This document shows, piece after piece, positions 1 through 40,581 of a DNA stretch of 53,201 bases. Position 1 is the first letter of the stretch; the number at the start of each line of letters is the position of its first letter. The DNA lies in the IMG/VR virus record IMGVR_UViG_3300044797_000084, positions 1 through 53,201 of that record, one strand, 5' to 3'. The translations under genes were made by a program, and so were the position numbers. Below the pieces are notes generated by a model. The model saw only the letters and a list, made by a program, of their open reading frames with translations, did no database searches and was not told the origin of the DNA. This stretch comes from a virus (taxonomy: Duplodnaviria; Caudoviricetes).

Positions 1-77
1 TCCACGTGCTCAGCGCGATGGTTCTGCGCCAACTCGGCGATGCGCCGATCCATCTCGGCGTTGGTGATGACGTTCAT
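1..77 (-). CDS. Hypothetical protein, 5' part only (MNVITNAEMDRRIAELAQ...)
   Basis: ATG at 77 with upstream AGGA; runs off the window. Confidence 0.5.
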   Translation of the reverse strand, partial: MNVITNAEMDRRIAELAQNHRAEHV

Positions 78-179
78 AGCTGGTCCTGTCGCTCACTGCG
101 TCCTGACCATTGGACTAGCCGCTTGCTGAAAAGGTGCTTATTTGCAGGGCTTTTGGGAGCAGTATTCCGATGGCTGTTC

Positions 180-270: not shown

Positions 271-1176
271 CTAGTAGCCGAGCCGCTTGAGGATGGCCTC
301 GGGGTAGCTGTGGCCATCGAGAAGTGGGAAGCGATCAGGCTTCGCGCCGCCCGGCTTGTAGCGGAAGATCACGCGGTCCTGGCCCTGACGATAGGAGTTC
401 CACGCCATGATGAAGAAGGCCGAGAGCACGCGCGGCGTGATCGGGCTGATCGTGCGGCGCTCTGCGTCAATCAGGCGATTCCGCAACAGCAGCCTGACGT
501 CACCATCGCCGAGGTCGACGCCCTCTCCCACGCCGAGGAAAAAGGCTTTGGCGTCCTCCGGATCGATGCGCCAACAGAGCAGCCAGAGTAGGGTTGTGGT
601 GGCAGGACTGATCGCGGGCACCTGCGGATACTGCGCTACGGCATCGCGCACGTCGGGGTTGACATGCAGCAGCTTGACGGCCTGGTGGGGCGAGAGGCGC
701 GTCGAAAACTTTGCGGCCGGTTCTCCTGTCTGCTCAAACGCGGCGAGGCGTGTGAGCACGGCGGCGATCCGCGTGTAGTGGGCCTCTCCCCGTGCGCCGA
801 GAATCTCACCAAGTGTGCGAATGGCACCGCGATCACCCGCTGAAACCTCGGGTTCTGGCAGACCTTCCAGGACAACCAGATCCATAGAGACGCCAGACTC
901 CACGATTGCTTCGAGACGATGCTGACCGTTTGGGCCAAGAGTGCCGTCCAGTTCGATCACGATGGCGTCCCAGCCCAGATGGCCCTCGCCGCGTCGAAGG
1001 GCGTCGGCGAGTTCATGCACCTGCCTTGGTTTGATCCCACGCGGATTACGCCTGTCGGCGAGAAGCGCCATTGCTTCCACGGGATGGATGCGCCGCACGG
1101 AGACGCGCAGATCGGGGTAAGCCTCGGCAATCTCAGCCGCGATCACACTGTCAGCCGGGCTCGCTACGGTTGCCAT
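271..1176 (-). CDS. ParB/Srx-like (DGQHR-type) N-terminal domain protein
   Basis: RNPR..ELADALRRG..DG..NGQHRLEAIV motif; AGGAGG RBS. Confidence 0.7.
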   Translation of the reverse strand: MATVASPADSVIAAEIAEAYPDLRVSVRRIHPVEAMALLADRRNPRGIKPRQVHELADALRRGEGHLGWDAIVIELDGTLGPNGQHRLEAIVESGVSMDLVVLEGLPEPEVSAGDRGAIRTLGEILGARGEAHYTRIAAVLTRLAAFEQTGEPAAKFSTRLSPHQAVKLLHVNPDVRDAVAQYPQVPAISPATTTLLWLLCWRIDPEDAKAFFLGVGEGVDLGDGDVRLLLRNRLIDAERRTISPITPRVLSAFFIMAWNSYRQGQDRVIFRYKPGGAKPDRFPLLDGHSYPEAILKRLGY

Positions 1177-4211: not shown

Positions 4212-4760
4212 GTACGCCAGTAGCTCATCAAGTCGCGCCTCGGCCTCAGCGCGGGTGATGTCGCGTCCCTCGTACTTCGCTGCGTAGTGTCCAGCTGCGT
4301 AGACCTTGAACCAGTCGGAGTGCTCGAAGGGATAGAGCTGCTCCATGTTGACCTTCCCTTGAATCTCAAGATGGCATCGCTGGCAAAGGGCCACGAGCTG
4401 ATGCCAGCGGCAGTCGAACTTGCGCGTCGGGCCGCCGAGGTGGTGGACGGTGAGGATGCGCCACTGGGCCTCGCGCGTCCAGAGACCGTGGACGAAGACA
4501 TGCACGTGCCAGTTGGGTTGCCCGTTCGCGATTGACGCGACCAGCGCGCCGTCCTCGTTGCGGACGCGCATCGGTCCTTCGTGCTTGCACCGCTTGTCGC
4601 ACGCTGACCACTCGCCGTCGCCGGACGCGTACGGATGCAGGCAGCGGACGCAGCGGTCACCGGCGAGCACCCGAGCTTCATGCTTGATTCGCTCATGCCA
4701 CTCCGGCGGGTAGCCGTCGGGGCCGACCTCGTCCGGCTCGTACAGGCGAAACACGCTCAC
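4197..4760 (-). CDS. HNH-like nuclease domain protein
   Basis: YPPEW..I..RCVRC...LTVHHL...LVALCQRCHL. Confidence 0.75.
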   Translation of the reverse strand: MSVFRLYEPDEVGPDGYPPEWHERIKHEARVLAGDRCVRCLHPYASGDGEWSACDKRCKHEGPMRVRNEDGALVASIANGQPNWHVHVFVHGLWTREAQWRILTVHHLGGPTRKFDCRWHQLVALCQRCHLEIQGKVNMEQLYPFEHSDWFKVYAAGHYAAKYEGRDITRAEAEARLDELLAYERLA

Positions 4761-11318: not shown

Positions 11319-11428
11319 CGCCGAGAAGCTACCAGAACCGACGAACGCCCCGCCTCAGCCCCGAACGGGGGGCCAATGCGGACCGAAGAGGGTCAGTCGG
11401 GATCTTACGCCCGCGTGCTCCTGAACGA

Positions 11429-11467
11429 CGAAAGCCCTGCCCAGCGCATGGCCAGACAGGGCTTTCG
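11429..11467 (-). terminator. Intrinsic terminator ending the late/tRNA transcript
   Basis: CGAAAGCCCTG...CAGGGCTTTCG. Confidence 0.65.
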
Positions 11468-11543
11468 AGCGTGAATGGGGCCGGGGTCTTGAAGCGTTTA
11501 GACCGACCACATCATCGGCGTTGGTAACGCGGACGCCGCCCCG

Positions 11544-11771
11544 CTAGATCCGTTCGGACCCCCTTGGCATGTGGGGAAGCCAGTGGGCGACATCGACCGG
11601 CGCGTGGAGCAGCCGACATGCTGGCGCGGGCGCGAGCGGCTGCGCGGGCGGCTCCCACATCCACGGCGGCACGATCCGGCACATGATCTGCTTGACCTCG
11701 CGCTGCGTGCGGATCACCCAATGCAGGGCTTCGTCGAACGCCGGATATGACCACAGAGACAGCGGAGCCAT
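11544..11771 (-). CDS. 75-aa hypothetical protein downstream of the tRNA
   Basis: GGGGAGGTGA RBS directly after the tRNA CCA. Confidence 0.5.
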   Translation of the reverse strand: MAPLSLWSYPAFDEALHWVIRTQREVKQIMCRIVPPWMWEPPAQPLAPAPACRLLHAPVDVAHWLPHMPRGSERI

Positions 11772-11788
11772 GCTCACCTCCCCGATTC

Positions 11789-11892
11789 TGGCATGCGCCC
11801 GACGTGAATCGAACACGCGACCTGCGGCTTGAAAGACCGCTGCTCTTCCCGCACCCCGAAGGTTACGGTTAACCACTGAGCTACGAGCGCAT
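11789..11892 (-). tRNA. Atypical tRNA, anticodon UUC (Glu by anticodon), with a D-loop hairpin insertion
   Basis: GCGCTCG/CGGGCGC acceptor, TA-GCTC/GAGC D stem, GCGGT-CTTTCAA-GCCGC anticodon arm, AGGTC, GCGTG-TTCGATT-CACGT T arm, ...ATGCCA. Confidence 0.85.
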
Positions 11893-11905
11893 CTGCGATC
11901 CTACC

Positions 11906-12664
11906 TCACGCCTCTACATAGACCCCGGCTTCTCCGCCTTCGGAAAGCAACTGAGCGAAGGTGGCGACAGGCATCCAGACAACCGAAGTCTCAGCCGAGG
12001 GATAGGCCAAGCCCCAGGAGTTCTCGAACGGGATCGCTGAGGCAGCGGGGCGCGCGAGTGCGGCCAGCACTTCCTCGACCGTGGTGGCCCACCGGATCGC
12101 TTTGATGCCATCGATGAGCGATGGTGCGGCGTCGCCGACATCTCGGGTGCAGACCTGCTCGCCGGCCTGGAGCCGGTGGCCTTTGGTGAGCAGCACGTCA
12201 GCACCAGCCTTGACGCTCGCGCCTTCGCCCGACGGGTAGGTGCCTTCGAGGATGCGCGCCTGGTCGTAAAGCCAGAACGCGTCGAAGAACTCGTCTTCGC
12301 CGTCGGGCTTCGCGGCCTTGTGGATCGTGATGGCTCGGCTGTTGCCGAACCCGACGCACGCGCCTTCCTGGCCCTGGTTGTAGAAGACCTGCGCTGGGCG
12401 TCTGTCGAGCACAACCGATCCGTTCGGCTCAAAGCAAAAGCAGTGGCCTCCCCGGATCGAGCCGAGCGGTTCGCCCTTCGCTACATCGGGCAGGTGGAAG
12501 CTGCCGTCGATCGCTTTGGGCGTATCGAAGCTGGTGAACCAGTTGAAGCCGACCACCACGGGCACACCCGTCGGTGCCCCACCTGGCGTCGCCGCGAGGG
12601 GCATCGCATCTATGTGCGGTTTGTCCTTGGGGATGATGCAGCCGAGAGAACCGCTCATGCTCAC
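11906..12664 (-). CDS. Papain-like (C1A) cysteine peptidase with rearranged motif order
   Basis: NQGQEGACVGF, GGHC and NSWG motifs; adjacent to the holin. Confidence 0.8.
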   Translation of the reverse strand: MSMSGSLGCIIPKDKPHIDAMPLAATPGGAPTGVPVVVGFNWFTSFDTPKAIDGSFHLPDVAKGEPLGSIRGGHCFCFEPNGSVVLDRRPAQVFYNQGQEGACVGFGNSRAITIHKAAKPDGEDEFFDAFWLYDQARILEGTYPSGEGASVKAGADVLLTKGHRLQAGEQVCTRDVGDAAPSLIDGIKAIRWATTVEEVLAALARPAASAIPFENSWGLAYPSAETSVVWMPVATFAQLLSEGGEAGVYVEA

Positions 12665-12975
12665 ACTCCTGCTTTCGGCGCATTAGAGCCACCGCCGAGT
12701 TTCTCTGCGATACCCGACGGTTTCCACACCAACAGGTGGGCACCGAAGGCAGCGACGATCGCGCTCAACACGAGCTGGAGCGTCGCGTCGTTCAGCCCGA
12801 AGATGCTCGTTTCGATCGCCGTATAGAGCGCCGCTACGACCGCGGCGACGATGGCGAGCACGAGCGCCTTGACGGGTTCCGTAACCCACGGGGCAAAGTG
12901 ATTAATTATGTAAGTCGCTAGCGGCACCAGCGCGCCGAGTAGTACGACCCAAACCTGTGGAGATCCCAATAGCAT
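12661..12975 (-). CDS. Holin-like membrane protein (3 TM)
   Basis: Three hydrophobic helices, basic C-terminus. Confidence 0.75.
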   Translation of the reverse strand: MLLGSPQVWVVLLGALVPLATYIINHFAPWVTEPVKALVLAIVAAVVAALYTAIETSIFGLNDATLQLVLSAIVAAFGAHLLVWKPSGIAEKLGGGSNAPKAGV

Positions 12976-14531: not shown

Positions 14532-14610
14532 GGCCGGTCGATGCCTTGACGCTGCTCTGCTTCGGGCATCGCAAGCTCGGGAAGCAGCAGAAACCGAGCG
14601 CCCGGCCGTC

Positions 14611-15368: not shown

Positions 15369-15718
15369 GGCCGCGTCTGCTCGGCGACCCGTCGCTTGCA
15401 GTTGTAGGTCGGCGCGATGACCTCTGCGAATTCGTCAAGCGCCTGGCGCTGGGCGAGAACGCGCGCGCGCGTCAGCTGTCCCGCGGGGTTCCGGGCGATC
15501 AGGCGCTCGAGTCCGATGACCGCCTGGGCGTGACGTTCGTTGCCTTCGCGGCAGCTGCGCATGCTCGACGACACCCGCGACTGCTGGACTTCTGAAATGC
15601 GGTCGCCGTTCTCGACGAGCACCCAGACGGACAGCGCGATGATGGCTCCGACGAGGCCTCCGAGAACGATGGCGAGCGCGAGCCGCTCCCTGTGGTGCAG
15701 GCGTTTTATTGGCGTCAT
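15365..15718 (-). CDS. Single-TM lysis-region protein
   Basis: N-terminal TM, Cys pair, coiled coil. Confidence 0.7.
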   Translation of the reverse strand: MTPIKRLHHRERLALAIVLGGLVGAIIALSVWVLVENGDRISEVQQSRVSSSMRSCREGNERHAQAVIGLERLIARNPAGQLTRARVLAQRQALDEFAEVIAPTYNCKRRVAEQTRP

Positions 15719-16017
15719 GGGTGCACCCCCGCGAGCACCCCGACGATTGCGCCGACACTTCCCGTCGCGATCCCCGAGATGACCCCGACGATGATCAGCT
15801 TGTTGCGCTCCCTGCGCTCCTGGTGGGGGTGACCGCCGACCGCTTCGAGGTCTCTGTTGACATCGTCGAACTGGGTACGCAGGCCTTTGATCTGCTCAGC
15901 GAGCACGCCCACGTTTCCGAGGGTCTCGTGCAGCCTGCCGACCGATGCCCTCAGCTCACGGACCTCTACTTGGAGATCGTCGAGGCGCCCGTCGTTCCAG
16001 CGCTCAAGTGCGGTCAC
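15715..16017 (-). CDS. Coiled-coil plus C-terminal TM protein (holin accessory-like)
   Basis: Heptad pattern then TM; AGGAAGG RBS. Confidence 0.65.
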   Translation of the reverse strand: MTALERWNDGRLDDLQVEVRELRASVGRLHETLGNVGVLAEQIKGLRTQFDDVNRDLEAVGGHPHQERRERNKLIIVGVISGIATGSVGAIVGVLAGVHP

Positions 16018-16155
16018 GGTGGGCACCTTCCTGTGGGTTGTAGGATCGGGGCTGCGCGGCGAGCGGAGGACCACCGTACTTACCCAGAATGCGGGGCTGC
16101 CTCACGGTGGGAAACGACCAGGCAGGCGCCGCGCCCCCGATTAGACTCTTGGCCG

Positions 16156-17205
16156 ATGAGCGACACCGACCATCAGATCGTCTACTCGATCGAAAACGCG
16201 CCGCTGGTGCGCTTCGCCACGCTCACGCGCGATCTGCCCTACGTCGTGGAAGCGACCTGGGCATCCGACCCACTGGTGCCAGACGAGGCCGTCGCGTGCG
16301 TAGTCGAACACGACGGAGACACTCGGTACATCCTCGCACCTTCAAGCGGTGTGGCGATGGTCCGCTGTGCGGGTGGCAGCGTGTACGTGACCGGATGCGG
16401 CCAGACGGTGTCCGAGGCCGAGGCCCTGATCGCGCTCGTGCGCGAGCTTCAGCCACTCACCGAGCACGAGGACGGGATGGTGCCGGTCACGTTCTGGGCA
16501 TACGGGCCGAACGGCCCGTTCAGCACGCGCCGCAAGGTGGCAGCGCCGACGTGGGGCGAGATCGCCGACAACTACGCCACCGTCACGCTCGGACGGCTGG
16601 CAGCCCTGACTGATGGCTCGTTCGCCCCGAGCGTCGGCGGCCAGCTCCTGCTTTGGTCAGGCGACGCAGGCACCGGCAAGACGACCTTGCTCCGCGCGCT
16701 TGCCCGCGAGTGGGAGGACTGGTGCGAGCTGCACTACATCACCGACCCCGAGAGGTTCTTTGGCACCCAGGCGGACTACATGATCCAGGTGCTACTCGGC
16801 GGCGGGGGGAAGGACGGGCCGGGCAGCGAGCCGCCGCCGTGGCGGCTGCTGGTCCTTGAGGACGCGGGCGAGCTGCTGCGCGCCGACGCGGGCGAAGTCA
16901 CCGGCAAAGCACTGTCACGGATGCTGAACACGGTTGATGGCCTGATCGGCCAGGGCTTGCGCGTGCTGGTGCTCGTCACCACGAACGAGGAAGTCGGCAA
17001 GCTGCACCCGGCGGTCGCGCGCCCCGGCCGCTGCGCCGTCGAGGTCGAGTTCGAGGCGCTAGATCGTGAGGGAGCCGCAGCGTGGCGCGAGCAGCATGGC
17101 ATCGACTCCGCGACGGATGGCGGCGCAACGCTCGCCGAGCTGTACGCCGAGCTTGAAGGGTTCAACGGCGCACGACAGCGCCAGCCAGTCGGCTTCGCCG
17201 CGTAG
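16156..17205 (+). CDS. AAA+ ATPase (DUF5925/BCS1-like)
   Basis: GDAGTGKT, LLVLED, LN..DG, TTN, RPGRC, C-terminal VGF; TAGACT leaderless promoter. Confidence 0.85.
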   Translation: MSDTDHQIVYSIENAPLVRFATLTRDLPYVVEATWASDPLVPDEAVACVVEHDGDTRYILAPSSGVAMVRCAGGSVYVTGCGQTVSEAEALIALVRELQPLTEHEDGMVPVTFWAYGPNGPFSTRRKVAAPTWGEIADNYATVTLGRLAALTDGSFAPSVGGQLLLWSGDAGTGKTTLLRALAREWEDWCELHYITDPERFFGTQADYMIQVLLGGGGKDGPGSEPPPWRLLVLEDAGELLRADAGEVTGKALSRMLNTVDGLIGQGLRVLVLVTTNEEVGKLHPAVARPGRCAVEVEFEALDREGAAAWREQHGIDSATDGGATLAELYAELEGFNGARQRQPVGFAA

Positions 17206-26674: not shown

Positions 26675-27796
26675 CTAGAGCTCGTAGTAGCAGACTCCCA
26701 CATTTGTCAGCGAGCCTTCCGTTACATTCAGTTTCCACGCCACGCCCGGTGGAATGATTGGTACGGATAGCGAGAATATCTGTTCGTTGGTACTAGGTTC
26801 CACTCTCAGAGATGCAACGCCTCCACTGCCGATTTTGATCGTTACCTCCACCCGTTCTGATCTGGCCGTCGTGAGGTTGAACACTGCGGCGACCGGACGG
26901 ATAGCGTTAGGCGTCTTGCCCGCGACGCCTTCGGCCTGCGTGTAGTTGTTTTGCAGGCCCCATGGTTCTGGACGCTGAGGTTCACCTGCCACGATAAGCC
27001 AGTTAAGCCCGTCGGAGATGAATTCAACGTGCTGGCGTACCGCGAGCGAGCAGCTAGTAACCCCTTGCAGGAAGTCGCCGAAAATCTCTTCGCCGTTGAC
27101 GCATTCCACCGTGACGGCCCCCCCGCCAGCAGCAGCCCCGACGCGCTGGGAGACGGCTCCTGCTGCGGCCGGGAGTTTCACCGTGATCGGCCCGGAGGAC
27201 TCGATTAGCTGGCCATATTGGGCGGTTACATTGCTAGCGGCGATTACGACAGCGAGTTGCACCAGGCTACCGAGCACACGGCTGGCCACGTTCCTGATGT
27301 CGGTGTTGGTGATGGTCGTGGCAGCAGCGGGCACGAGCACGTAGGCCAAGGTGATGCTGTTTTTCGGTGCGGCGGCGACCCCTTCAAGGTTGGTCAGGGT
27401 GGCGCCGGCTTTCGCGGTGCCTTCCTTGACTTCGATCTTGGCTTCGTTTTTTGAGCCTTCATAGCTTTCGTCGAAGACCGTGGCGACGATCCGTTCGATG
27501 CGCGGGTTAGACCCGTTGGCTGCGGCGAGCGTGAACGTGGCGGCAGCGGTGTTGCGGAAGTAGTAGCCCGATTGTGTGGCTGACACGTTGCCGGGGATGA
27601 TCGCCTCGCCTTGGGCGACTTCGATTTTCAGCCCGGACCCTTGGTAGGTGACCTGGAGGTCGGTCGCGGCGACCAGGCCGCCGAGCACCGAGCCGATCGT
27701 GGCTCCTCGGGCGAGCATGAAGTTGATCGCCCTTCTCGTTCGCTCGGCGGATTCGCCCGCCGAGTTATCTTGCAAGCCGAACGCTTCTTGCGTCAT
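26675..27796 (-). CDS. Minor tail/fibre-associated protein
   Basis: L.V..G.A.I.G...AA.GSNPRIERIVA.V.D...LAYVLVPA actinophage minor-tail motif; GAAGGGAG RBS. Confidence 0.8.
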   Translation of the reverse strand: MTQEAFGLQDNSAGESAERTRRAINFMLARGATIGSVLGGLVAATDLQVTYQGSGLKIEVAQGEAIIPGNVSATQSGYYFRNTAAATFTLAAANGSNPRIERIVATVFDESYEGSKNEAKIEVKEGTAKAGATLTNLEGVAAAPKNSITLAYVLVPAAATTITNTDIRNVASRVLGSLVQLAVVIAASNVTAQYGQLIESSGPITVKLPAAAGAVSQRVGAAAGGGAVTVECVNGEEIFGDFLQGVTSCSLAVRQHVEFISDGLNWLIVAGEPQRPEPWGLQNNYTQAEGVAGKTPNAIRPVAAVFNLTTARSERVEVTIKIGSGGVASLRVEPSTNEQIFSLSVPIIPPGVAWKLNVTEGSLTNVGVCYYEL

Positions 27797-27850
27797 GGCT
27801 GACTCCCTTCTCGGCTAAAGCGTTGGTGCGCGTGGGTCGATGCGCTCGCG

Positions 27851-28084
27851 ATGGAAACCCTGCGCGACGAAATCAAAGAGCTGCTAGACGCGCCCGTCAG
27901 GCTGACCGAGTTCGGACGCACCAACTGGCTCGAAGGCGCAGACGCGATCGATCGCGTCGCAGAGGATCTGGACTTCGAGACGTTTCATCTTGAGTTTCGC
28001 CTGCTTGTCTTTGCGCTTGATGAAGGCAAGCGGGCCGCGATTCTTAGGCTTGCCCGTGAGATTGAGCATCTGCGAGATAACTGA
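27851..28084 (+). CDS. 77-aa acidic helical protein
   Basis: Protein-like ORF; overlaps the antisense ORF 27884-28225. Confidence 0.5.
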   Translation: METLRDEIKELLDAPVRLTEFGRTNWLEGADAIDRVAEDLDFETFHLEFRLLVFALDEGKRAAILRLAREIEHLRDN

Positions 28085-28225
28085 GTGCGCACATGCCCAG
28101 TCGCAGAAGTGCAGCGACCGCCCCGACCGCCCCGTGATCGTGACGAACCGGCCGACCTTATCCTGGTGATTGCATCCCGCGGCGTCGCAGCGGAAGAGCG
28201 GTTCGGCGCCATCCTCTTGCGTGAT
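27884..28225 (-). CDS. TRASH/MYM-like Zn-finger protein with probable ATC start
   Basis: GGAGGTGA-tgacct-ATC; FRCDAAGCN...LHFCDWACA, paralog of 28485-28688. Confidence 0.5.
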   Translation of the reverse strand: MTQEDGAEPLFRCDAAGCNHQDKVGRFVTITGRSGRSLHFCDWACAHSVISQMLNLTGKPKNRGPLAFIKRKDKQAKLKMKRLEVQILCDAIDRVCAFEPVGASELGQPDGRV

Positions 28226-28330
28226 AGGTCATCACCTCCGTTCCGTTGTAGACGCGGCTAGCCAGAGCGCAGCGCCGTGTTCGAGACTGCTCTGCGCAAT
28301 GTCGACCCCTTCAATGCGAGGTGACAGCCG

Positions 28331-28507
28331 ATGTATTTCCTGATCGTGAAAACCGAGCATGGCTACCACGCTCGCCTCTATGACGAGAACAACAAGCTGC
28401 TGTTCTGGAGCAAGGACTACCCGTCGGAACGAGCAGCGGTCGCTATCTGCTCGACCACTCGGCAAACGATGACGCCCGAGACGCCTATCCGCACGGAATC
28501 ACGGTAG
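28331..28507 (+). CDS. DUF1508/YegP-like protein (58 aa)
   Basis: MYFLI...Y.ARL...N...L..SKDY.S..AA; GAGGTG RBS. Confidence 0.65.
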   Translation: MYFLIVKTEHGYHARLYDENNKLLFWSKDYPSERAAVAICSTTRQTMTPETPIRTESR

Positions 28508-28688
28508 GCGGGGGAAACTTCGCTGCGTACTTGAGGGCGCAGTTCCAGGTGCAGAAGTGCAGGACGTGGGGCTTGTGCCCCGTTTCGGTTACGAGTAGCC
28601 AGCCGGGGCACTCTGGCTCCGTGTAGAGCGAGCTGACGTTCGTGTTGCATCCCTCGGCATCGCAGTAGAAGACGCGCTCGATGCTCAC
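28485..28688 (-). CDS. TRASH/MYM-like Zn-finger protein
   Basis: FYCDAEGCN...LHFCTWNCA. Confidence 0.65.
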   Translation of the reverse strand: MSIERVFYCDAEGCNTNVSSLYTEPECPGWLLVTETGHKPHVLHFCTWNCALKYAAKFPPPTVIPCG

Positions 28689-28772
28689 TGTGCCGACCCC
28701 CCGGTGGGGGAGGGAGGCAGGTCTCCAGAACATGCATTATCGAGCGTTGACAGTTGCGCCACGAGCGGTCTC

Positions 28773-29321
28773 CTATTCCGTGAGGCTGAATGTGATGCCG
28801 TCAAACCCGTAGTAGTCGCCGGTCGAGAGGTTGCTGTTGGGCTGGCATTCGCCGGAACTGAGAACGATGAGCGATGGTGCGCTAGCGGTCGAGATCGGAG
28901 CGATCGGCATGAACCGGTTGAACGACGGCCGGTAGCCCACAGGGAGCGTGAAGATGGTGGTGTTGGCCGGGACTTCAGCAGTCGTTTTGATTGCGCCGGT
29001 GAACCGCACGTTGGCGCCCATCTCGCGTCGGACCGCCACTCCGCCTTCGATTTTCGCCGAGACGTTTTCCACACCGACCCACGGTCCGACCCCCGGCAGC
29101 TCAACCCACAAGCTGTCTACCAGCACCGCGATCCCGAAGCCCGTCAGGCCCGTGCTTTCGCCTTTGGGGGTCGATGCGAGGTTCCCGATGATCGCTCGGC
29201 AGACGCCTTCGCTATCGACGATGTATTCGGTCTGGCCTGCCTTGAGTGCTTGGACGTCGCCGGAGAGCTGGGCGAGCTTTTGACCGAGCCACTGGCCTGC
29301 GGGTTCTGCGTAGCCGGGCAT
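28773..29321 (-). CDS. Minor tail protein
   Basis: V.F.G.I.....IFTLPVGYRP...FDGITF C-terminal domain. Confidence 0.8.
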   Translation of the reverse strand: MPGYAEPAGQWLGQKLAQLSGDVQALKAGQTEYIVDSEGVCRAIIGNLASTPKGESTGLTGFGIAVLVDSLWVELPGVGPWVGVENVSAKIEGGVAVRREMGANVRFTGAIKTTAEVPANTTIFTLPVGYRPSFNRFMPIAPISTASAPSLIVLSSGECQPNSNLSTGDYYGFDGITFSLTE

Positions 29322-30796
29322 TAGATCGTCGGGTTCAGGGCTTGGAGAAGCGGGGGGCGACCGAGCGTTAGCTTGACCACGGCGTCGCCCTGGTCGGCTA
29401 CTTCGCAGCTCCAGGCGATGATGCGGAACTCCCGTTCAAGGCCCTGCGGGAATCTCGGGTCGTACACTTCGCCTGTGGGCGCCGTTTCGGGGATGAACAA
29501 CTTGATGTCGTCGCCGACGGTGAACGAGCCGAGCGGAAGGTTTGGGTCGTTTACACCGATCGTGATGGTGGGCGTGACCGGCGCGTAGCTGTAGATCGCT
29601 AGGTCTGAGAAGCCGATCTGTTCGAGCAGCCCCTCGATGTTCTGGGACTGGATGCTCGCCCGGGAGATGACGCGCTCCCACAGCGGGTAGCCCTGTTCCT
29701 GCGTGGCAGGGTTGAATTCGCTGACGCTGATTGCGCCGGAGCCTCCAAGCTCGTAGATTCGGTTGGCGGTCTGTGTGCCGTCCTCGGGGAATTCGTAGCC
29801 CCGTGCTGTGGTGACATCCACCATCAGCCCGTTTTGGGCGAACGTCCGGCCGCGTCTGGGGTAGCTGATGTTGATCGTGCCGACCGGCGGCGAGCCTGGG
29901 CCTTCGCTGTAGGCGACGTCGACCCCGAAGTCAAAGCCGACGCCCAACCCGAGCTGGGCGAGCTGGGAGACGATCGTGTCAACGGTCTGCATCGACGTGA
30001 ACGGGTAGCTGACCGCGATGTAGTCGCCCACCCCCGCGGCTGGTTCGGAGCCGGATGGCACTTGGCCGTTAAGCTTCAGTTCCAGGCCGCCAAGGAGATC
30101 TCCGTAGGGCTGCAGCGACCCGTCTGAGTAGCCGATCGCGTCCGCGATGATCTGGCAGGCGATCAGCGAGGCATCCCATGGGGTCTGTGTCCAGTAGGAC
30201 ATGGGGGAGCTGTCGCCGGTGATCCCTGAGTAGGGCGGGCTTGAGTAGTCGGTCGCCTGCACCCTGTTTTGAAAGTAGAACCAAGCCTCCGAGCAGGACA
30301 CTTCCAGCAGGCCCGTCGTGGACTGCAATGAGGCTTCGACCTTCCATTTGCGGGGCAGCACGATGCCTCCCCACTGCACCGACTGCAGATAGTCCACCAC
30401 GATCAACGTCCGGTTGGGCACCGTGCAGTTGAGCGGTTCAGTCGTCTGCACCCGCGGGTCACGCAAGTCGAGCGTGCTCTGAAACGTGCCGGGCGTGTTG
30501 AGCTGCTGGCCGAACGTCACACCCCGCAGCGGGAGCTGGCCCAGAAACCGGCCGGTCAACAGGTCATAGGCCAAGTAGCTGAACGGGTTGCCGTGGACAG
30601 CGACGCCGGTGGCGGCGACTTCCGAGACGGGTTCCGGGCTAGGTTCAGGTTCGGGCGCCAAGCCGGGCTGGCCGCCGCCGTAGTAGTAGCCGCCGTAGAG
30701 GGCCGCTCCGAATGGCGCCTGGTTGTATTCGCCGGCTCCGTCGACGGTGAAGTCGCCAACGATCAGGCCGTCGCCGACGACCGGCCCCGAGGGCAC
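29321..30796 (-). CDS. Baseplate hub/Tal-like minor tail protein
   Basis: YLAYDLLTG...LPL..V.F...LNTPG...WGGIV...TANR; position in the tail module. Confidence 0.8.
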   Translation of the reverse strand: MPSGPVVGDGLIVGDFTVDGAGEYNQAPFGAALYGGYYYGGGQPGLAPEPEPSPEPVSEVAATGVAVHGNPFSYLAYDLLTGRFLGQLPLRGVTFGQQLNTPGTFQSTLDLRDPRVQTTEPLNCTVPNRTLIVVDYLQSVQWGGIVLPRKWKVEASLQSTTGLLEVSCSEAWFYFQNRVQATDYSSPPYSGITGDSSPMSYWTQTPWDASLIACQIIADAIGYSDGSLQPYGDLLGGLELKLNGQVPSGSEPAAGVGDYIAVSYPFTSMQTVDTIVSQLAQLGLGVGFDFGVDVAYSEGPGSPPVGTINISYPRRGRTFAQNGLMVDVTTARGYEFPEDGTQTANRIYELGGSGAISVSEFNPATQEQGYPLWERVISRASIQSQNIEGLLEQIGFSDLAIYSYAPVTPTITIGVNDPNLPLGSFTVGDDIKLFIPETAPTGEVYDPRFPQGLEREFRIIAWSCEVADQGDAVVKLTLGRPPLLQALNPTI

Positions 30797-30799
30797 GGG

Positions 30800-31129
30800 C
30801 TAGCCTTTCTTGGGTTTGGCGCGTCTCTGAGCCCGGTTGGGCTGAGCGGCGTCCAGCTCGCCCTGCCATTTGCGCATCTCCTCCGGGAACGTCTTAGACA
30901 CGTAGGTCTCCCAGTTGTCGACGGCGATCCGCACCGCCGGATGCTCCACCTTCTCCAGTGTCTCGCCGTCGTCGTAGACGATCTCGGGCTGGATGAGGTA
31001 GTGGCTGGGCTGCCCCAGAGGCTGCTTGTGGTAGGTCTTCCAGTCCTTGGGGGCGACCGCGACCGGCTCGAACTGGGGTTGGACGTGCATCGTGACCAAA
31101 CGCACGGTCTTTTTGCGTGGTGTGGTCAT
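30800..31129 (-). CDS. Hypothetical protein
   Basis: Coupled; ends with an NRAQRR motif. Confidence 0.65.
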   Translation of the reverse strand: MTTPRKKTVRLVTMHVQPQFEPVAVAPKDWKTYHKQPLGQPSHYLIQPEIVYDDGETLEKVEHPAVRIAVDNWETYVSKTFPEEMRKWQGELDAAQPNRAQRRAKPKKG

Positions 31130-31455
31130 GACGCACCTGCGTCTGACGCCATGCGTTCGAGCCAGCCTTCTGTGCTGAGATCAATGAACTTGCGGAGCGC
31201 CGCATACATGTCCTCAGCTAGCGTCTTGTCTTCTAGCCGCACTCCCGCGATCTCAACGATGCCATGGCCGTCGATGACCCCCTCTAGGGCGCGCTCGCCG
31301 ATGCCGATGCAATACGACGCCGTAGACCCCGGACCGATATCTGGTCCCGCGTCCACGCCGATCAGGATGTTGTGGTGAGCCGCGCCATCGGACTCCACGT
31401 GCTGACCCGCTCGCAGCCCGATGAAGATGTTGTGCCCCCTGGCTTCTGTGCTCAT
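31126..31455 (-). CDS. Small protein with fibre-type N.x.IG repeats
   Basis: HNIFIG..AG, HNILIG..AG, CIGIG..AL; ATGA overlap with the fibre stop. Confidence 0.7.
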   Translation of the reverse strand: MSTEARGHNIFIGLRAGQHVESDGAAHHNILIGVDAGPDIGPGSTASYCIGIGERALEGVIDGHGIVEIAGVRLEDKTLAEDMYAALRKFIDLSTEGWLERMASDAGAS

Positions 31456-33455
31456 GCCGTCAGCCCGCTTTCGTGTGCCCATTTGGAGAACTTTTCGCAG
31501 AACTTCACGACCGCCAACGCCTGCGCTTCCGTTTCAAAACCATAAGGCGTGACTTTGGTGGCTTTCAGCGCCCCGGTTTCCAGGCTTTCGGCGACGAGCG
31601 TCGCGGGCGCTTTGCCATTGAACCCGAGCTTGGCGGCGTTGAGCGCAAGTTCCGCGTTGGGGAATTTACCGGTGATGAGCCCCGCCGCTTCTGAGTTGTG
31701 CGCCCCCATCGAGATGATCAGCCGGTTTTCGTAGGACGCTTCCGCCGTGCCGGTGCCGGCGAACGTGCCGATAAACACGTTTTTGGATTTCGTGTTGGCC
31801 TGCCCGGCGTTGCAGCCGATGAAGATGTTCTGGCTGTTAGCGCTGCCACCCGCTTCGTTGCCGAGGATCACATTCAACGCGCCTTCGCCCGTCGGCGTCT
31901 GCAGGGTGCTGACCCCGACCGCCACGTTGTCTGACCCCTGGGCGCCTTTGCCGGCGTAGGTCCCGACGAACACGTTGCGGCTCGTCGCGGTGCCCGCAAA
32001 CCCGGACTGCCAGCCAATCGCGACATTAGCGAACCCGGCTCTCAGTTCCGCGCAGGATTCATGGCCGATCGCCACGCAGTTGCTTGTTTCCGTACCGCCG
32101 CGCAACGCTTCGGTGCCGAGCGCGATGTTTTCTTCCCCGCGAGTGATGCCGAACCCGACCCGCTCGCCGATCAGGATGTTCCCACCCCCGGTGGTGAGGC
32201 TGTTCGCGGCGGTGCGGCCGATGATGATGTTGTCTTCGGTGGATTCCGAGACCTGCATTCTCGTGGTCGCGGGTTTCATGGTGCCCGCCAAGGTCACGAG
32301 TTTGGGCATTTCTGATTTAGCGAGGCCGGCTTCTTCCAGGGCTTTTTCTTCGGCGCTTGAGAACGTGCCGTTCGCTACCGCGATCACGTTGGTGTAGGAG
32401 ATCGGGTAGCCGCGTCCCTTGACGAGCTTGAATTTTGTGCCCGTGAACCCAGTCCAGCTCTGGCGAACTTCATGCGTGACGCCGACACACCAGTACAGCA
32501 CTTCGGTTTCCAGGCCGCACCCTGGCGTGACTTCGGTGAAGGTCACGTTCGGCACGTTGTCGAGGTGCCAGTTTTCTTCGTTCTGGCCGGAGGGCGTCGT
32601 GAATTCGGTTTTGCCGCTCGCGAGTTCCGCCCCAGGCGCAATAGGGCCAGCGATGATGCCGCTCAGGTGCTGCCCGGCGTTTTCGCCGATCAGGATGTGG
32701 CTGTTGTGTTTTTCCTGTTCGATGCGCGACAGGCCGAGCAGCGTTTCGCCTGCGCCCGGGCCGATCGCCATGCTTCCGCCCTGGAAGCTGTAGCGCAGAT
32801 GCACTTTGCTTTCGATTTCGCTTGAGCCGACCGTGCCGCCCGCGCTGTTGGTGTTCCATACCTGGGCGGTCGTCCCGACGATCACCCGCGTTTTGTTCTC
32901 GAAGTCCCAGATCGAGCCCTTGTATTCTTTGCCTTCCGCGACAGCGACCGTCACGCCCAACGGCAGTTCTTTCCCCGTTTCAAAGCCTGCCGGTCGCACC
33001 CACGCCCCGGACTTCACTTCCCATAGACCACGTTCTTTTTCGTTGGTCTGAAACGGCACAAGGACGATGTTCCCTTCGATGATCGCCACTTCGTCGGTCT
33101 GGCTTTTCGCGGGGATGCCGGAGAGCGTGGAGTTGACGGTCACCACGGCGACCGCGCCGGGTAGTTCGGCCTTTTTGACTGCTTCCTGCGCGAGCGTTTC
33201 CGCTTCAGCTTTGCTGAGCCCCGCGCCCGTGCTCCATTCCGCTGTCCCGTTTTCTTTCCACTTCAGATACTGCCCCGTGGAGCCGCCCGTCGGGACGAGC
33301 CGTTTAGAGACGGCCGTTGCTAGCTGGCTTTCGGTGATTGCCCCCGTGCCAAGCATCGTGTTGGCGATCGTTTCGAGGTCGTCGCCGTATTCGTTGAAGA
33401 GTTCGGCATTGGCTTTCGTGACGCCGTTGACGACGACAGGCTTGAGAAGCGTCAT
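31452..33455 (-). CDS. Tail fibre/adhesin with YadA-head-like beta-roll repeats
   Basis: ~12 N-x-x-I/V-G repeats at a 13-14 aa period; VLV..QT...ERGLW N-terminal domain; AGGAGG RBS. Confidence 0.8.
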   Translation of the reverse strand: MTLLKPVVVNGVTKANAELFNEYGDDLETIANTMLGTGAITESQLATAVSKRLVPTGGSTGQYLKWKENGTAEWSTGAGLSKAEAETLAQEAVKKAELPGAVAVVTVNSTLSGIPAKSQTDEVAIIEGNIVLVPFQTNEKERGLWEVKSGAWVRPAGFETGKELPLGVTVAVAEGKEYKGSIWDFENKTRVIVGTTAQVWNTNSAGGTVGSSEIESKVHLRYSFQGGSMAIGPGAGETLLGLSRIEQEKHNSHILIGENAGQHLSGIIAGPIAPGAELASGKTEFTTPSGQNEENWHLDNVPNVTFTEVTPGCGLETEVLYWCVGVTHEVRQSWTGFTGTKFKLVKGRGYPISYTNVIAVANGTFSSAEEKALEEAGLAKSEMPKLVTLAGTMKPATTRMQVSESTEDNIIIGRTAANSLTTGGGNILIGERVGFGITRGEENIALGTEALRGGTETSNCVAIGHESCAELRAGFANVAIGWQSGFAGTATSRNVFVGTYAGKGAQGSDNVAVGVSTLQTPTGEGALNVILGNEAGGSANSQNIFIGCNAGQANTKSKNVFIGTFAGTGTAEASYENRLIISMGAHNSEAAGLITGKFPNAELALNAAKLGFNGKAPATLVAESLETGALKATKVTPYGFETEAQALAVVKFCEKFSKWAHESGLTA

Positions 33456-33465
33456 GACCAACCTC

Positions 33466-34356
33466 CTAAATGATCCACGCGCTCGCGTATTCGCAAAACA
33501 AGGTGCCTTGGCTGGCGAGAAACTGGATCGTCGAGACGCCAGGGTTGAGCGTCCACCACTTCGAGCCGGAGACCAGCAGTCCGGTCCTGGTCGACCCGGC
33601 GGTGCTTCCCGACGAGTACAGGATCGCGGTGTGCATGTCGGTGTCGACCACGAGTTTTTCGCCGGCATTCAGCGTCAAGTTGAAGGCGAGCGTCGGCCCA
33701 CCAGTCGCGGTGGCGTTCTGGATCGCCGGGTTCACGCACGGCCCTTCGACCGTCAGAATCGGCCGCGTCTCAATGTTTCCGGCGTTGTTGACCGCCAGCG
33801 CACCCGTGTAGCCGCCGCCGCCCCATTTCAGATTCCATTTCAGCGGCCACGTAAAGCCGCCCACACTCGTCGGCGGTTTGACCGACAGCTGCTGCGTCGG
33901 CGCATACCAGCGGGGGTCAGTGCCGGCGAACAAGAACATCACCTTCGCCAGGTTCCCCAGCGTAAACGTGATGTCCACCGGCATCTGGCGCTTACGGACA
34001 CGCACTAGCGTCGCCAGCGTTCCCCACGTGGTGGTGTTCAGAAACAGCGGGTACTGGATCGTGCCGCCCGGCACTGTGGCGTCTGAGCATTCCTGCCACG
34101 CCGCGGTGAACGTCCCGGTCGCGTTGTGCAGGTCGGCTTTGACGATGATTTCGCGCTCGCCCAACACGTCCAGGCCAGCGAACGCCCCATGGTCTCGTGC
34201 CCTGCCTGCGTCTCCGCTGCGCACGGCGGGCATGTCGATGCCTTCGAGCCCCGTGAGCTCCAGGTTCGTGCCGGGTCCGAGGCTCAACGCGTTGTTGAAG
34301 TTCATCTGCCACGCCGAGAGCGTCGGGATCGTGGACCCGTAGGGCAAGAATGCCAT
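33466..34356 (-). CDS. Distal tail protein (Dit)
   Basis: Follows the TMP; G..MP.VR..D..R..HG, DPRWY, N.G.IETRP..T..GP..NP, W..L.PG. Confidence 0.9.
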   Translation of the reverse strand: MAFLPYGSTIPTLSAWQMNFNNALSLGPGTNLELTGLEGIDMPAVRSGDAGRARDHGAFAGLDVLGEREIIVKADLHNATGTFTAAWQECSDATVPGGTIQYPLFLNTTTWGTLATLVRVRKRQMPVDITFTLGNLAKVMFLFAGTDPRWYAPTQQLSVKPPTSVGGFTWPLKWNLKWGGGGYTGALAVNNAGNIETRPILTVEGPCVNPAIQNATATGGPTLAFNLTLNAGEKLVVDTDMHTAILYSSGSTAGSTRTGLLVSGSKWWTLNPGVSTIQFLASQGTLFCEYASAWII

Positions 34357-34371
34357 GTGACCTCCCGGCCT

Positions 34372-37300
34372 TTAGGGCAGCGGCATGAGCTGGCGCAGCA
34401 CCCACCCAAGCTCAGACGCGTTCGCTGCGGCGTCTTCCGGGTTCATCCCGTACTGGTTGACCACAAGCCCCGAGCCGGCGTACTGCACCTGCGAGCGCTC
34501 CTTGGTGACGTCGACTTCTTTTTCGAGCTTGGCCTCTTCCTGGGCGGCCGTGTCTTCCAGTTTCTGGAGTGCCAGGGCGGCCCCTTTGAGCGTCAGTTCC
34601 GATTCGCCCTTTGCCTTCGCCAACGTCTGTTCGGCATTCTTGATCGCTTCATTCCAGTGGTTGGTGACGTTTTCCATCGCCTTCGCGGCTTCCTCGCTCA
34701 TCGTGGCCGCGCCCTGTTCCACCTTCTTGAGATTGGCGGTGGCCGCCGCCTCCTGGTGTTCGGCTTCGTGTTCCGCGAAGCTCAGGCCAGAGGCGGCAAG
34801 GTTCTGTTGTTCCTTGCTCTTGTTCGCGGCGGCGAGCACCTTGAGCTCGGCGTTGCCGATCTTCTGGTCCTGGGCGAGCTGGACGTTGTCCACTTGTTCC
34901 TGCGCCGCAGCGATTTCGCCCGCAGCCTTGATTGCCACCGCGTCGGCGTGCGCCTGCGCCATAGCCTCTTGCGCGTCGGCCTGGGTTTTGTCGTCGTCGA
35001 CGAGTTGCTGATCCTGTGCGAGGACGCCCTGTTCCGTCGCAGCCAGTTCGTCCTCGGCGATCTTCGCCTGCTGGATCTGCTGGTCATAGCTCGCCTTCAT
35101 CTGGCCGAGCTGCACTTCCTCCTTCTGTGCGATCAGGTTCAGCCCATACAAGCCCCGCTCGCCGAGGATCGCGACTTCGATGTTGGTCTGGTCCTTGATT
35201 CCCGTGACGACTGCGTTCGACGAGTCGGCCATCACCTTGCTCTGCGCTTCGATCGACTGCGCCAACGCAGCGAAGCTGTCGGACATCGACTGGGTGGCAT
35301 CCCCGATCGCTGTGGCAGCTGCCTTCATCGCGTCAGTCTGCTGTGCCTGTTCGGCCTTGACGATGTTCAACTGGTCTGTCGCGGTGTGTTCGGCCTGGGT
35401 GGTGCGGTCCTTTTCCTCGGTCGCCTGGATCTTCAACGATTCGCCGAGCTTCGTCGTCTCGGTTGCGACCATCTCCTCGGCGAGCGTGGCGAGCGCCTGC
35501 TTGTGAGCGGCCTCTAGTTTGGAGGCAAGCTCCTCGAGCTTCTTCTGGTGCGTCGCGTTCAGTTCGCTGACGAGCTTCGACTCCTGCTTGCCGGCGACAG
35601 ACCCTTGCGCGCTCTTACCGAGCGCTGCGATCAGGCTGCTCATCGACCCGCCGCCCGCCGTCACGGCTTCGACCATCCCGCCGATAGCCGACGGGCGTGT
35701 CGTTTTCTGAGCGATCGAGCCGGGAATGCCCTCATGCACTGTCGCCGGCCCTAGCGCCCTGGTCGAGACCCCTAGGGCTTTCTCCATTGCGGCCGGCGTT
35801 GAGTTCTGGATCTCGGCTTCATATTTTTTGAGTAGTGATTCGCCGCCGGTGGTGATTTTTTCGATATGCCGTTTGAGTTCTTCGCCTGCTTTTTTCGCCG
35901 CCTCTTCAAGCTTCTCTTTCGCTTTTTCTGCGGCTTTTTCGAGCTTCTCCCCTGCTTTTTCTGCGGCCTTTTCCTGCTTCTCTTTCGCTTTTTCCTGCGC
36001 CGCAGTAGGGGGTTCCGCAGTGCCCTTGCCGTTCTGCTGGGTCTTTGCAAGCGCTTCCGCTGCGGCCTGTTCGCGGCGTGATTGCTGATCGGTTGTAGCG
36101 GTTTCCCCCGGCTGCGATCCTGCCGGCTGCTCGTAGTCTTTCATGATGAGGTTGGCCGCTTCGGTGGGCGACTTGGTCTTCTTCAGCGCAGCGACGAGGC
36201 TTGGTGACAGGTGTTCCAACACCTGCTGCGACTGCTGCGTGACGCCGCCCGTGCCAAGCCCGGGGTAGCCGGACTGCTGATACAGGCCGCCACCGGGCGT
36301 GCCCGGAACGAGGCTCGACTCTGCTGCGGCGTTGCCGACAAACCCGGCCGCCGCAGTAGCGGAGAAGCCCTTGCTCTCGAAGAACCGCATGATCTGCGCT
36401 TCGACGCTGCCGCCCTTGCTCGTGGCGCCTTCGGAGAAGTTTTCGGCTGCTTCGCGTTTGCTGATGTTCTGGTTGACGCCGGGTTCGGTCTTCGAGTAGC
36501 GGGGTGCCTTTGCTTCTTCTGCGACCGTCCTAAGTTTTTCGATCTCAGGAATACTGCCCGTGAGTTCGCCGATCGTTTCGTCGTACGCCCGGATGATCTT
36601 GTTTAGGTCATTGATAATGGCGTTGCCGACGGTCTTTGTGACCGATTCCATCGCTGTCATCACGGTCGACCAGTGCTGCTCAAGCTCTAGCGCCGCGAGA
36701 CCGAGAATCCCGAGGACTGCACCGATGCCGGTGGCTCCCATCGCAGCATCTACCCCGACGGCTGTCTCGTCTGCGCTCTCGACGATCGCCGCGTTGGCGG
36801 TCTCGACCTCGCCTGCTGCGGCTGTGGCTGCGTCGGACATGCTGCCGTAGGCGCCGGCCATCGCCTCGGTCTCGGTCGTCGTCGTCGCTGCGGCTGTCGC
36901 GACGGCGTCGTCCTCGATGGCGAACTTGCCGACGATCGTCGAGACGGCGCTCGTGACCCCGGACGCGAGGGTCTGCATCCCGCTCCACATTTTCTGTAGG
37001 CCGCCGTAGAACGCGACGGCCTTCTGCGCCGCGAACGCTCCGACCGCCGCACTGAGCACCCCGGCGACGGTCAAGCCGAGCGCCTCAGCCGCGACCTTGT
37101 TCTTTTCAAACCACTGGATCACTTCGCCCGTGGCCTTCCCGGCTGCCTGGAGCTTGGGGATCAGGAAGAACCCGAGCCGGTCCGCGTCCGCGGAGATGCT
37201 CGCCTTAAGTTGGTCCATCTGGAAGGACAGGTTTTCGGTACGTTTCTGCCAGTCCGAGCCGAAGTTCGAGCCGCCCTGCGAGACATCTTTGACCTTGTCC

Positions 37301-38715: not shown

Positions 38716-39180
38716 TTAGAGTCGCGCCCCGAGCGCCTCGTGGATGGCCGTCGCCAAGCGGTCTGCGATCAGCTCGAGGATCGCCTCCGTCTCATCCTCA
38801 AGCGCAGGCGAGAGGAACGCCGGATGGCTGTTCTTGTCCGTCCAGCCGACCCTTTCGGGCACGCCCGGCCGCGGCGAGTAGGTGGGGTGGCGCACAAAGC
38901 CCTTCCCTTTGTTCTCGATCGGTGCGGCGTTCGGTGCCGCGTCGCCGCCGGCGCTCACCTTGAAGTTCACCGCGGTCGCACGCGCTTTCAGCGAGCCCGC
39001 GACACGCGACGAATAGCCCACCCGGCCTGCGGCGTTGACCTTGACCAACTCGGCGCTGTCACGCAGGGCACCGCGCACCGCCAGCGCACCCGCCGCCCCG
39101 GTCGCCCGGATACCACGCGTGAGAGCGGAGAACTGCTTGGTGTCGATGACGATCGGTACCCCGGTCTTGCCGGCCATCAC
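38716..39180 (-). CDS. HK97 gp10-like tail completion protein
   Basis: A.P.A..IE..G...RHP...PAFLSPALE. Confidence 0.65.
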   Translation of the reverse strand: MMAGKTGVPIVIDTKQFSALTRGIRATGAAGALAVRGALRDSAELVKVNAAGRVGYSSRVAGSLKARATAVNFKVSAGGDAAPNAAPIENKGKGFVRHPTYSPRPGVPERVGWTDKNSHPAFLSPALEDETEAILELIADRLATAIHEALGARL

Positions 39181-40499: not shown

Positions 40500-40581
40500 T
40501 ACGCGCTACCGTCCTGCACGTCAACCTCCGCATTAGGTTGGCCTGCCCCCGGTCGTTAGCGCGACGTGGGGGCACTTACGA

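Follow-up and report, generated by a model that had tools for sequence, protein, structure and literature searches.

Is a tRNA gene with an extra hairpin in its D-loop a working tRNA, and where did the phage that carries it obtain such a design? The question is raised by a 53,201-base virus contig from IMG/VR (~75% complete; the whole stretch analysed, hereafter the window), which carries on its minus strand a 97-nt tRNA gene (11794..11890) with the anticodon UUC and a hairpin of 20 nt in the D-loop. Our reading, to which we give a probability of roughly 0.72, is that the gene encodes a functional phage tRNA for the decoding of GAA, probably also of GAG, as Glu, and that it is a diverged copy, ~86% identical, of the UUC tRNA of a subclade of the Solirubrobacterales. 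This subclade of soil Actinomycetota uses the hairpin tRNA in place of the canonical tRNA-Glu(UUC). The hairpin design is not a phage invention, and the phage gene is best read as the ordinary acquisition of an extraordinary host tRNA.

A first-pass annotation of the window had described a UUC tRNA with a 20-nt UUCG-capped hairpin in the D-loop; its reading of the minus-strand letters is correct as written, and the description agrees with an Rfam match and with covariation among homologues. Specifically, the match to RF00005 (11794-11890, minus strand) scores 59.2 bits, compared with a gathering score of 29, and covers model positions 1-71 of 71, with 26 inserted bases versus 1 in the model, placed directly after the GGU of the D-loop. 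The tRNA has a 7-bp acceptor stem with the discriminator A73 at 11794. In the Rfam alignment, the D arm (11842..11881, minus strand) is formed by GCUC (11881-11878) and GAGC (11845-11842), which enclose AGUGGUUAA, the hairpin, and GAA. The hairpin itself, CCGUAACC-UUCG-GGGUGCGG (11849..11868, minus strand), is read from the sequence between D-loop positions 20 and 21, with seven of its eight pairs standard and one A.G. The anticodon arm GCGGU-CUUUCAA-GCCGC (11824..11840, minus strand) and the T arm GCGUG-UUCGAUU-CACGU (11802..11818, minus strand) are supported by both the sequence and the alignment, and the anticodon loop CUUUCAA puts the anticodon UUC at 11833-11831. Further features of the tRNA type can be read directly: the anticodon loop is 7 nt long and has U33 as well as a purine at 37, G18-G19 are present (in AGUGG), and the T loop is UUCGAUU. 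The D-loop is off the norm in length, with 32 nt between the D-stem strands, 20 of which are the hairpin, as against the ordinary ~7-11 nt. ARAGORN called no tRNA over the whole window and misnames the homologues as tRNA-??? or tRNA-Ala(ggc); by ARAGORN and Rfam together, the hairpin tRNA is the only tRNA in the window. Folding of the single sequence is unpersuasive (z = -1.60 for the whole tRNA and z = -1.37 for the hairpin alone, with a minimum-free-energy fold that is not a cloverleaf), so that the case for the hairpin rests on the comparison of homologues.

Such homologues were found in viruses with a broad pattern (the D arm beginning in the standard way, then 16-45 additional bases and GAGC, followed by a correctly spaced anticodon loop and T arm), which matched 29 loci, 9 of them tandem-tRNA false positives and the rest single tRNAs with a D-loop insertion. 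A model built in this analysis (R1), which gives the window tRNA 98.1 bits, places 12 distinct viral tRNAs, scoring 91-108 bits, in one family. They share the acceptor GCGCNNG and the D arm GCUC-AGUGGUNAA-hairpin-RAA-GAGC, and their anticodons are UUC in nine cases and CCU, UGC and UUU in one case each. Compared with the other distinct family members (44 in all), the window copy reaches no more than 85.6% identity. In three tRNA-rich phages (L023, L026 and L030, with sets of 14, 29 and 28 tRNAs), the UUC slot is filled only by hairpin tRNAs, and an ordinary Glu(CUC) tRNA is present in two of the three loci (L026 and L030). Each of these phages also has a tmRNA with a long tag peptide (L023 9130-9491, L026 4069-4451, L030 6701-7089). 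In particular, L026 carries a second UUC tRNA (801-892, minus strand), missed by ARAGORN, with a different D stem (GCUG/CAGC) and a D-loop hairpin of its own.

The hairpin is conserved as a structure. In an alignment of 42 distinct sequences of the family with a five-helix structure, 98.7% of all cells are paired, and in the hairpin helix 7/7 pairs are changed on both sides, with 95.9% of cells paired. None of 500 shuffled controls attains the observed values for the hairpin on any measure, and sliding the hairpin partners out of register lowers pairing to 36-50%. The viral members alone (n = 12) have 6/7 hairpin pairs changed on both sides and 90.5% of cells paired. Across the family, the hairpin has 7-8 bp and a loop of 4-10 nt, it lies between D-loop positions 20 and 21, and the adenosines that flank it are invariant in 42/42 sequences. 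Among the other helices, pairs are changed on both sides at 4/7 positions of the acceptor stem, 5/5 of the anticodon stem, and 4/5 of the T stem. The earlier statement that all cloverleaf arms pair gains support for the acceptor, anticodon and T helices, while the D stem is invariant in 42/42 sequences and covariation speaks neither for nor against it. The homologues with a covarying D-loop hairpin, found in phages and in cells, also uphold the proposal of a non-canonical tRNA class as opposed to a one-off pseudo-tRNA.

The first-pass annotation had inferred a 9-bp acceptor stem with an encoded CCA, an arrangement that the family does not support. Both extra pairs (an 8th, -1:73, and a 9th, -2:74) are possible in 4/44 distinct family members, with -1:73 pairing in 10/44, and CCA stands at the canonical positions 74-76 in 2/44 and at the offset seen in the window (76-78) in 3/44. 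The CCA of the window (11789..11791, minus strand), 2 nt past the discriminator, was judged to be there by chance; the whole AT...AT/G/CCA arrangement is apparently a coincidence, and the acceptor stem looks like a normal one of 7 bp with A73. TANNNT is a loose −10 pattern, and the TAGGAT at 11903-11898, which had been taken for a promoter element, fits only this loose form; a consensus promoter scan of 11400-12800 returned 0 sites, a result that lends the proposed promoter no support and does not speak against it either.

The same broad pattern, run over cellular genomes with one genome per species, matched at least 120 loci. Among the 120 matches listed, 89 belong to the hairpin family (87 with UUC, 1 with ACC, and 1 with UGU), 14 are a different, archaeal tRNA(CGU), 13 are tandem tRNAs and hence false positives, and 4 are other. 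The family loci are almost all from Solirubrobacterales; among the titles listed, theirs are metagenome-assembled genomes (MAGs) labelled Solirubrobacterales, Solirubrobacteraceae, Thermoleophilia or 'Actinomycetes', several of which are complete chromosomes. On one host chromosome, the hairpin tRNA sits in housekeeping surroundings, among genes for an FGGY kinase, a polysaccharide deacetylase, a transketolase and a transaldolase. In five complete chromosomes (G001-G005), the hairpin tRNA is the sole tRNA-like match in which a standard T arm follows a UUC anticodon loop. Specifically, the chromosome G001 has 46 tRNA matches, of which the only canonical-type tRNA-Glu is CUC, and ARAGORN reads its hairpin tRNA as 'tRNA-???'. 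On the same chromosome, ARAGORN calls an odd 71-nt tRNA(ttc) (L197, G001:C1:419040-419110, minus strand) with the D-loop AAUGCA, which lacks GG, and the T loop CUCGUAC; a counterpart of it is absent from 5/5 other hairpin chromosomes. Genomes without the hairpin tRNA retain the canonical gene: 4/5 in a first set have a canonical tRNA-Glu(UUC), and further non-hairpin genomes gave pattern matches in 16/16 cases, with 9/10 of those fetched called tRNA-Glu(ttc) by ARAGORN and having typical Glu bodies. A strict canonical-Glu pattern with a GGAC D stem, too narrow for a presence/absence table, matched 19/201 genomes of the order and 0/13 of the hairpin genomes among them.

Although the anticodon is that of tRNA-Glu, the body of the hairpin tRNA is closer to tRNA-Arg. 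The canonical bacterial tRNA-Glu(UUC) shares with it the anticodon UUC, in some related genomes also the loop CUUUCAA, and apparently the same decoding job. In the tRNA-Glu of related genomes, the acceptor is GCCCCCA or GGCCCCG, the D arm is of the GUCU/GGAC type and the variable loop is short. In the hairpin tRNA, the acceptor is GCGCYCG, the D stem is GCUC/GAGC, the variable loop is AGGUC (5 nt), and the D-loop contains the hairpin of ~20 nt; in D arm, variable loop and acceptor stem alike, the window tRNA falls outside the Glu type of its relatives. Its body is 79-82% identical to tRNA-Arg and 61-72% identical to 11 tRNA-Glu, and for hairpin tRNAs overall the values are 79-85% to tRNA-Arg(UCU) and 61-75% to tRNA-Glu, in a comparison set partly picked by the best matches of R1 itself, for which reason we no more than infer the Arg(UCU) origin of the body from similarity. 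The best R1 matches in the class that lack a hairpin come from tRNA-Arg(UCU) genes, which share the acceptor stem GCGCCCG. The first-pass annotation had likewise judged the body unlike a bacterial tRNA-Glu, in line with values of 82-85% identity to tRNA-Arg(UCU) against 66-75% to tRNA-Glu.

The codons at issue nevertheless behave as Glu codons in the host clade. In conserved blocks of rpoB and rpoC, aligned between hairpin genomes and non-hairpin orthologues, GAA aligns with Glu at 7/8 positions and GAG at 117/127, and between hairpin genomes GAA stands opposite GAG or GAA in 49/64 comparisons and opposite an Arg codon in 0/64; the test of GAA as Glu is a small one, comprising 8 and 64 observations in two genes. 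A single gene for the glutamyl-tRNA synthetase (GluRS) is present in each of three hairpin genomes, and the hairpin tRNA would presumably be charged by this one host enzyme.

In the window, the tRNA gene is set between genes of the phage itself. On its upstream side, a 252-aa peptidase-like open reading frame (ORF; 11906..12664, minus strand; weak match to phrog_16701 'peptidase', E = 5.6e-08; no Pfam match) has its stop codon 15 nt before the tRNA start, and on the downstream side a 75-aa ORF preceded by GGGGAGGUGA (11544..11771, minus strand), the translation of which matches no Pfam or PHROGs family, has its ATG 22 nt past the tRNA end. The window belongs to a tailed phage, and its other phage genes encode a helicase, an exonuclease, an endolysin, a tape measure protein, minor tail proteins, and a head-tail adaptor. 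Since phage genes lie on either side of the tRNA, the site is not a prophage-host junction; a Pfam and PHROGs scan of ~30 of the 77 picked ORFs found no integrase. A second phage contig, found by an exact pattern, carries an identical tRNA (97/97). The tRNA and both short gaps are identical between the two phages over 134/134 bases, and the flanking coding DNA is identical at 50/55 (91%) and 194/228 (85%) positions, the 75-aa ORF being conserved at 85%. A search by neighbour, using the upstream peptidase-like gene, gave six loci, and the tRNA lies beside that gene only in the contig already found; the five other relatives of the gene (45-80% protein identity) have no tRNA at that place. Cultured-phage records gave no match in a near search, and a distant search of 50,697 such records gave nine partial matches to ordinary tRNA-Trp or tRNA-Thr that cover 34-42% of the query, with 0/9 covering at least 80%.

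Codon usage suggests what the phage may use the tRNA for. By codon counts from ORF picks that we made on the basis of GC content at third codon positions, GAA makes up 37-38% of the Glu codons of the window phage, compared with 7-12% in rpoB and rpoC of three hairpin genomes. The preference is concentrated in the late virion genes (26675-41847, minus strand), which strongly favour GAA, whereas early genes favour GAG. Specifically, the ratio of GAA to GAG is 59:2 in 31452-33668, 24:5 in the putative capsid gene (40582-41847), 20:6 in 26675-27796, and 19:6 in a minor tail gene, and 3:30 in the early helicase gene. For a GAA-rich phage in a GAA-poor host, an extra supply of the one GAA decoder is a sensible role. 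However, a complete related phage genome with terminal repeats (G332, one of the five relatives of the upstream gene), which has no tRNA and in which R1 finds 0 matches, has 40% GAA, and another phage (G337), which has the tRNA, has 32%. The same bias without the tRNA indicates that codon supply fails to account for the distribution of the gene among phages.

A rival reading is that the hairpin never reaches the mature tRNA. It could be an intervening sequence that is removed to leave a normal D-loop, as in archaeal and nucleomorph introns at non-canonical positions such as 20/21, and the first-pass annotation had listed an intron-bearing tRNA among its suggestions. The site of insertion fits, since 20/21 is a known intron position in archaea according to a review of tRNA introns (PMC4090602), and, as read from the sequence, excising ~25 nt would restore a standard GCUC-AGUGGU-A-GAGC D arm. 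The machinery and the shape do not fit. No bulge-helix-bulge is found at the junctions, the element being one continuous covarying helix of 7 bp whose flanking single strands both lie at one end, with invariant adenosines at the junctions, as opposed to two 3-nt bulges 4 bp apart. The splicing endonuclease family PF01974 is found in 0/5 hairpin-clade chromosomes, while the control matched four archaea. Furthermore, an RNA word search with the host gene as query listed 23 runs. At least half of the sampled words occur in 20 of them; 14 of these 20 are recorded as RNA, all of them soil or rhizosphere metatranscriptomes. Contigs from 4/4 soil RNA runs span the host tRNA from end to end, hairpin included, and show 0 differences and no joint, although RNA-library contigs may include DNA or precursors and can show neither mature ends nor rare spliced forms, so that a spliced minority form could escape them. 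In three of the four runs, the contigs end near position 118, which we do not take as a 3′ end because assembly graphs break at strain divergence. Taken together, we regard removal of the hairpin as very unlikely, and the suggestion of an intron-bearing tRNA has gained no support.

A second rival reading concerns what the phage keeps the gene for. Phages are known to make up for cleaved host tRNAs with tRNAs of their own, and U-rich anticodons are often nuclease targets; the gene could be a counter-defence spare part that replaces a host tRNA-Glu(UUC) cut by a host anticodon nuclease, in place of a source of codon supply. Its position as the sole tRNA of the phage would agree with this, as would the tRNA-less relative with an equal GAA bias, for which codon supply alone is no explanation of possession, and zymocin acts on tRNA-Glu(UUC) in yeast according to passages of a review. 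On the other hand, the anticodon loop CUUUCAA is the same in phage and host, with no escape change visible where such nucleases usually cut, this analysis linked no defence or nuclease gene to the hairpin tRNA, and tRNA-rich phages carry the hairpin tRNA as one of a near-complete set. We consider such a rescue role unlikely, and the nuclease-resistant tRNA imagined earlier finds no sign of nuclease escape in its favour. It is very unlikely that the gene is a decaying passenger, a pseudo-tRNA taken from the host, as might be suspected from the absence of a tRNA at this position in close phage relatives and from its rejection by ARAGORN. All helices are intact, the Rfam score lies 30 bits over the cut-off, viral copies differ by compensatory changes, and the 134 bases of tRNA and gaps have stayed identical in two phages with flanks that differ by 9-15%. 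We see just as little prospect for a role outside translation, as an aminoacyl donor, primer, decoy or regulatory RNA, for which one could cite the unusual shape and the use of the scaffold with anticodons that fit the body poorly (UGC without G3:U70, and ACC). Against such a role, both the anticodon loop and the T loop are canonical, as are G18 and G19, the hairpin tRNA is the only GAA decoder found in the host clade, and GAA codons there stand at Glu positions. The decoy and the non-ribosomal donor of the first-pass annotation gained no support. The design is that of the chromosomal UUC tRNA of a Solirubrobacterales subclade.

The reading we prefer, a functional GAA decoder copied from the host, has points to answer as well. 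Besides the small scale of the rpoB and rpoC test, the silence of covariation on the D stem, the possible DNA in the RNA libraries, and the comparable GAA content of phages with and without the gene, the following weigh against it. The hairpin tRNA is present in 13/201 evenly sampled Solirubrobacterales genomes, and accordingly marks a subclade. Across 151 genomes of the class of the host, with 27 candidates per genome scored, R1 has a full-length match in G001 alone. In a prophage search for the host, 1/201 sampled genomes of the order showed a prophage-like relative of the putative capsid protein, and that genome lacks the hairpin tRNA; independent evidence for the phage host is thin. Furthermore, the hairpin scaffold occurs with other anticodons, namely CCU, UGC and UUU in viruses and ACC and UGU in MAG contigs (L011 2151-2248; L024 2235-2329; L028 11813-11922; L061 6298-6391; L125 7073-7185), which argues that the hairpin is not strictly tied to Glu. 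The UGC copy lacks G3:U70, and the UGU copy has a 37-nt insertion.

As a GAA decoder, the hairpin tRNA could follow the usual course of a tRNA. With G18, G19 and the T loop intact, the L-shape can still form, with the hairpin expected to stick out at its outer corner. RNase P and 3′ processing would release the tRNA from a polycistronic phage transcript, the hairpin would stay in the mature tRNA, CCA would be added after transcription, and the single GluRS of the host would charge the product. The phage tRNA would then raise GAA decoding for virion genes; in the host, where GAA is rare, one tRNA gene would serve GAA. The hairpin-type UUC tRNAs of tRNA-rich phages, including the second one of L026, and the compensatory changes seen among viral copies suggest that the hairpin is needed by something in the host. 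This need is most plausibly charging, and phages would keep the hairpin since the host machinery, most likely aminoacylation, requires it. More tentatively, and in our estimate doubtful as a specific mechanism, the D-loop hairpin could be a new tRNA identity element, which fills the position-20 pocket read by ArgRS and adds a surface near the GluRS-bound D stem, letting an Arg-type body become the only GAA decoder of the clade after loss of the canonical tRNA-Glu(UUC).

How does this tRNA compare with unusual tRNAs described before? Class II tRNAs (Leu, Ser, and bacterial Tyr) are elongators with a fifth helix retained in the mature molecule, and, to our knowledge, retained extra tRNA arms are textbook matter for the variable region only. 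According to the abstract of PMC3333845, nev-tRNAs have a long variable arm. Both resemble the hairpin tRNA in having a fifth helix and differ in its place, which is the variable region 44-48 in theirs and D-loop position 20/21, on the other side of the core, in ours. Archaeal and nucleomorph intron tRNAs share the site of interruption and a similar size (3-24 nt in nucleomorphs; PMC4090602), and differ in that their introns are excised via a bulge-helix-bulge by a splicing endonuclease; the hairpin tRNA has no such motif, and the enzyme is found in 0/5 host chromosomes. A review of non-canonical tRNAs (PMC7609411) treats tRNA-Sec, allo-tRNA and tRNA-Pyl classes. Compared with tRNA-Sec and allo-tRNA, with acceptor/T arms of 8/5, 9/4 or 8/4, the hairpin tRNA has a normal 7/5 and its novelty lies in the D-loop. 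The passages seen of a 2026 preprint on codon reassignment in Acidimicrobiales (10.64898/2026.05.03.722492) mention only a 10-nt D-loop. Codon-compensating phage tRNAs are similar in that the cognate codon is commoner in the phage (37%) than in the host (7-12%) and host-type features are copied; they differ in that possession here does not track the bias, as G332 illustrates, and in a structural type that ARAGORN misses. Remoulded tRNAs arise by a shift of alloacceptor or anticodon. The hairpin tRNA is like them in combining an Arg-like body with a Glu anticodon, the donor family being deduced from similarity. We found no natural tRNA with a retained extra arm between D-loop positions 20 and 21 in the full-text literature searched and the review passages, and no published description of a D-loop hairpin in a bacterial or phage tRNA in the full-text literature, subscription journals and supplements lying outside the scope of the search.

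Other tRNAs with unusual insertions turned up alongside the family. The 14 archaeal tRNA(CGU) loci (L037, L049, L053, L064, L065, L071, L099, L105, L106, L110, L133, L138, L151 and L153) lie in Thermoplasmatota, Methanomassiliicoccales or 'Methanobacteriota' MAGs and have the acceptor GCCACUG and a variable D-loop insertion of 20-35 nt, possibly an archaeal intron at a site other than the canonical one. Two tRNAs unrelated to the family, one in an Acidobacteriaceae MAG (L101 1134-1229, plus strand) and one viral (L010 10169-10277, minus strand), combine an ACU anticodon with a D-loop hairpin, and D-loop hairpins may have arisen more than once. Just upstream of hairpin tRNAs in two loci are tRNA-like genes (L016 1003-1125, plus strand; L020 9631-9719, plus strand) with long insertions in the anticodon loop, in L016 also in the D-loop, and non-standard T loops. 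A sister phage (L003) has a tRNA-Ser(GCU) at 4622-4705 (minus strand), on the opposite strand and ~600 nt downstream of its hairpin tRNA, with no counterpart in the window. In the window itself, a match to the CyVA-1 RNA motif (RF02965) lies at 14532-14607 (minus strand), ~2.6 kb from the tRNA, with 49 bits compared with a cut-off of 41.4, and a 498-aa ORF at 15709-17205 (plus strand), on the strand opposite to nearly all genes, has an AAA ATPase domain, DUF5925, and weak NACHT/STAND-like matches.

Elongator tRNAs are among the most shape-constrained of molecules, and here a conserved, covarying fifth helix in the D-loop appears to belong to the normal GAA decoder of a whole subclade and to have been faithfully copied by its phages. 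Retention of the hairpin would mean that a bulky projection near the elbow has to be tolerated or used by RNase P, the CCA-adding enzyme, GluRS, EF-Tu and the ribosome. If the hairpin were moreover an identity element, the phages of the clade would have to copy it for their own UUC tRNAs to be charged, the molecule would be a natural five-armed elongator tRNA working on the ribosome, and it would provide a natural case of one insertion switching tRNA identity and a scaffold for the engineering of orthogonal tRNAs. The tRNA of one acceptor family has apparently taken over the codon of another family without a change of the genetic code. As ARAGORN misses or misnames these genes, genomes and phages of the clade may be annotated as being without a tRNA-Glu(UUC), and the hairpin tRNA could mark the hosts of uncultured phages.

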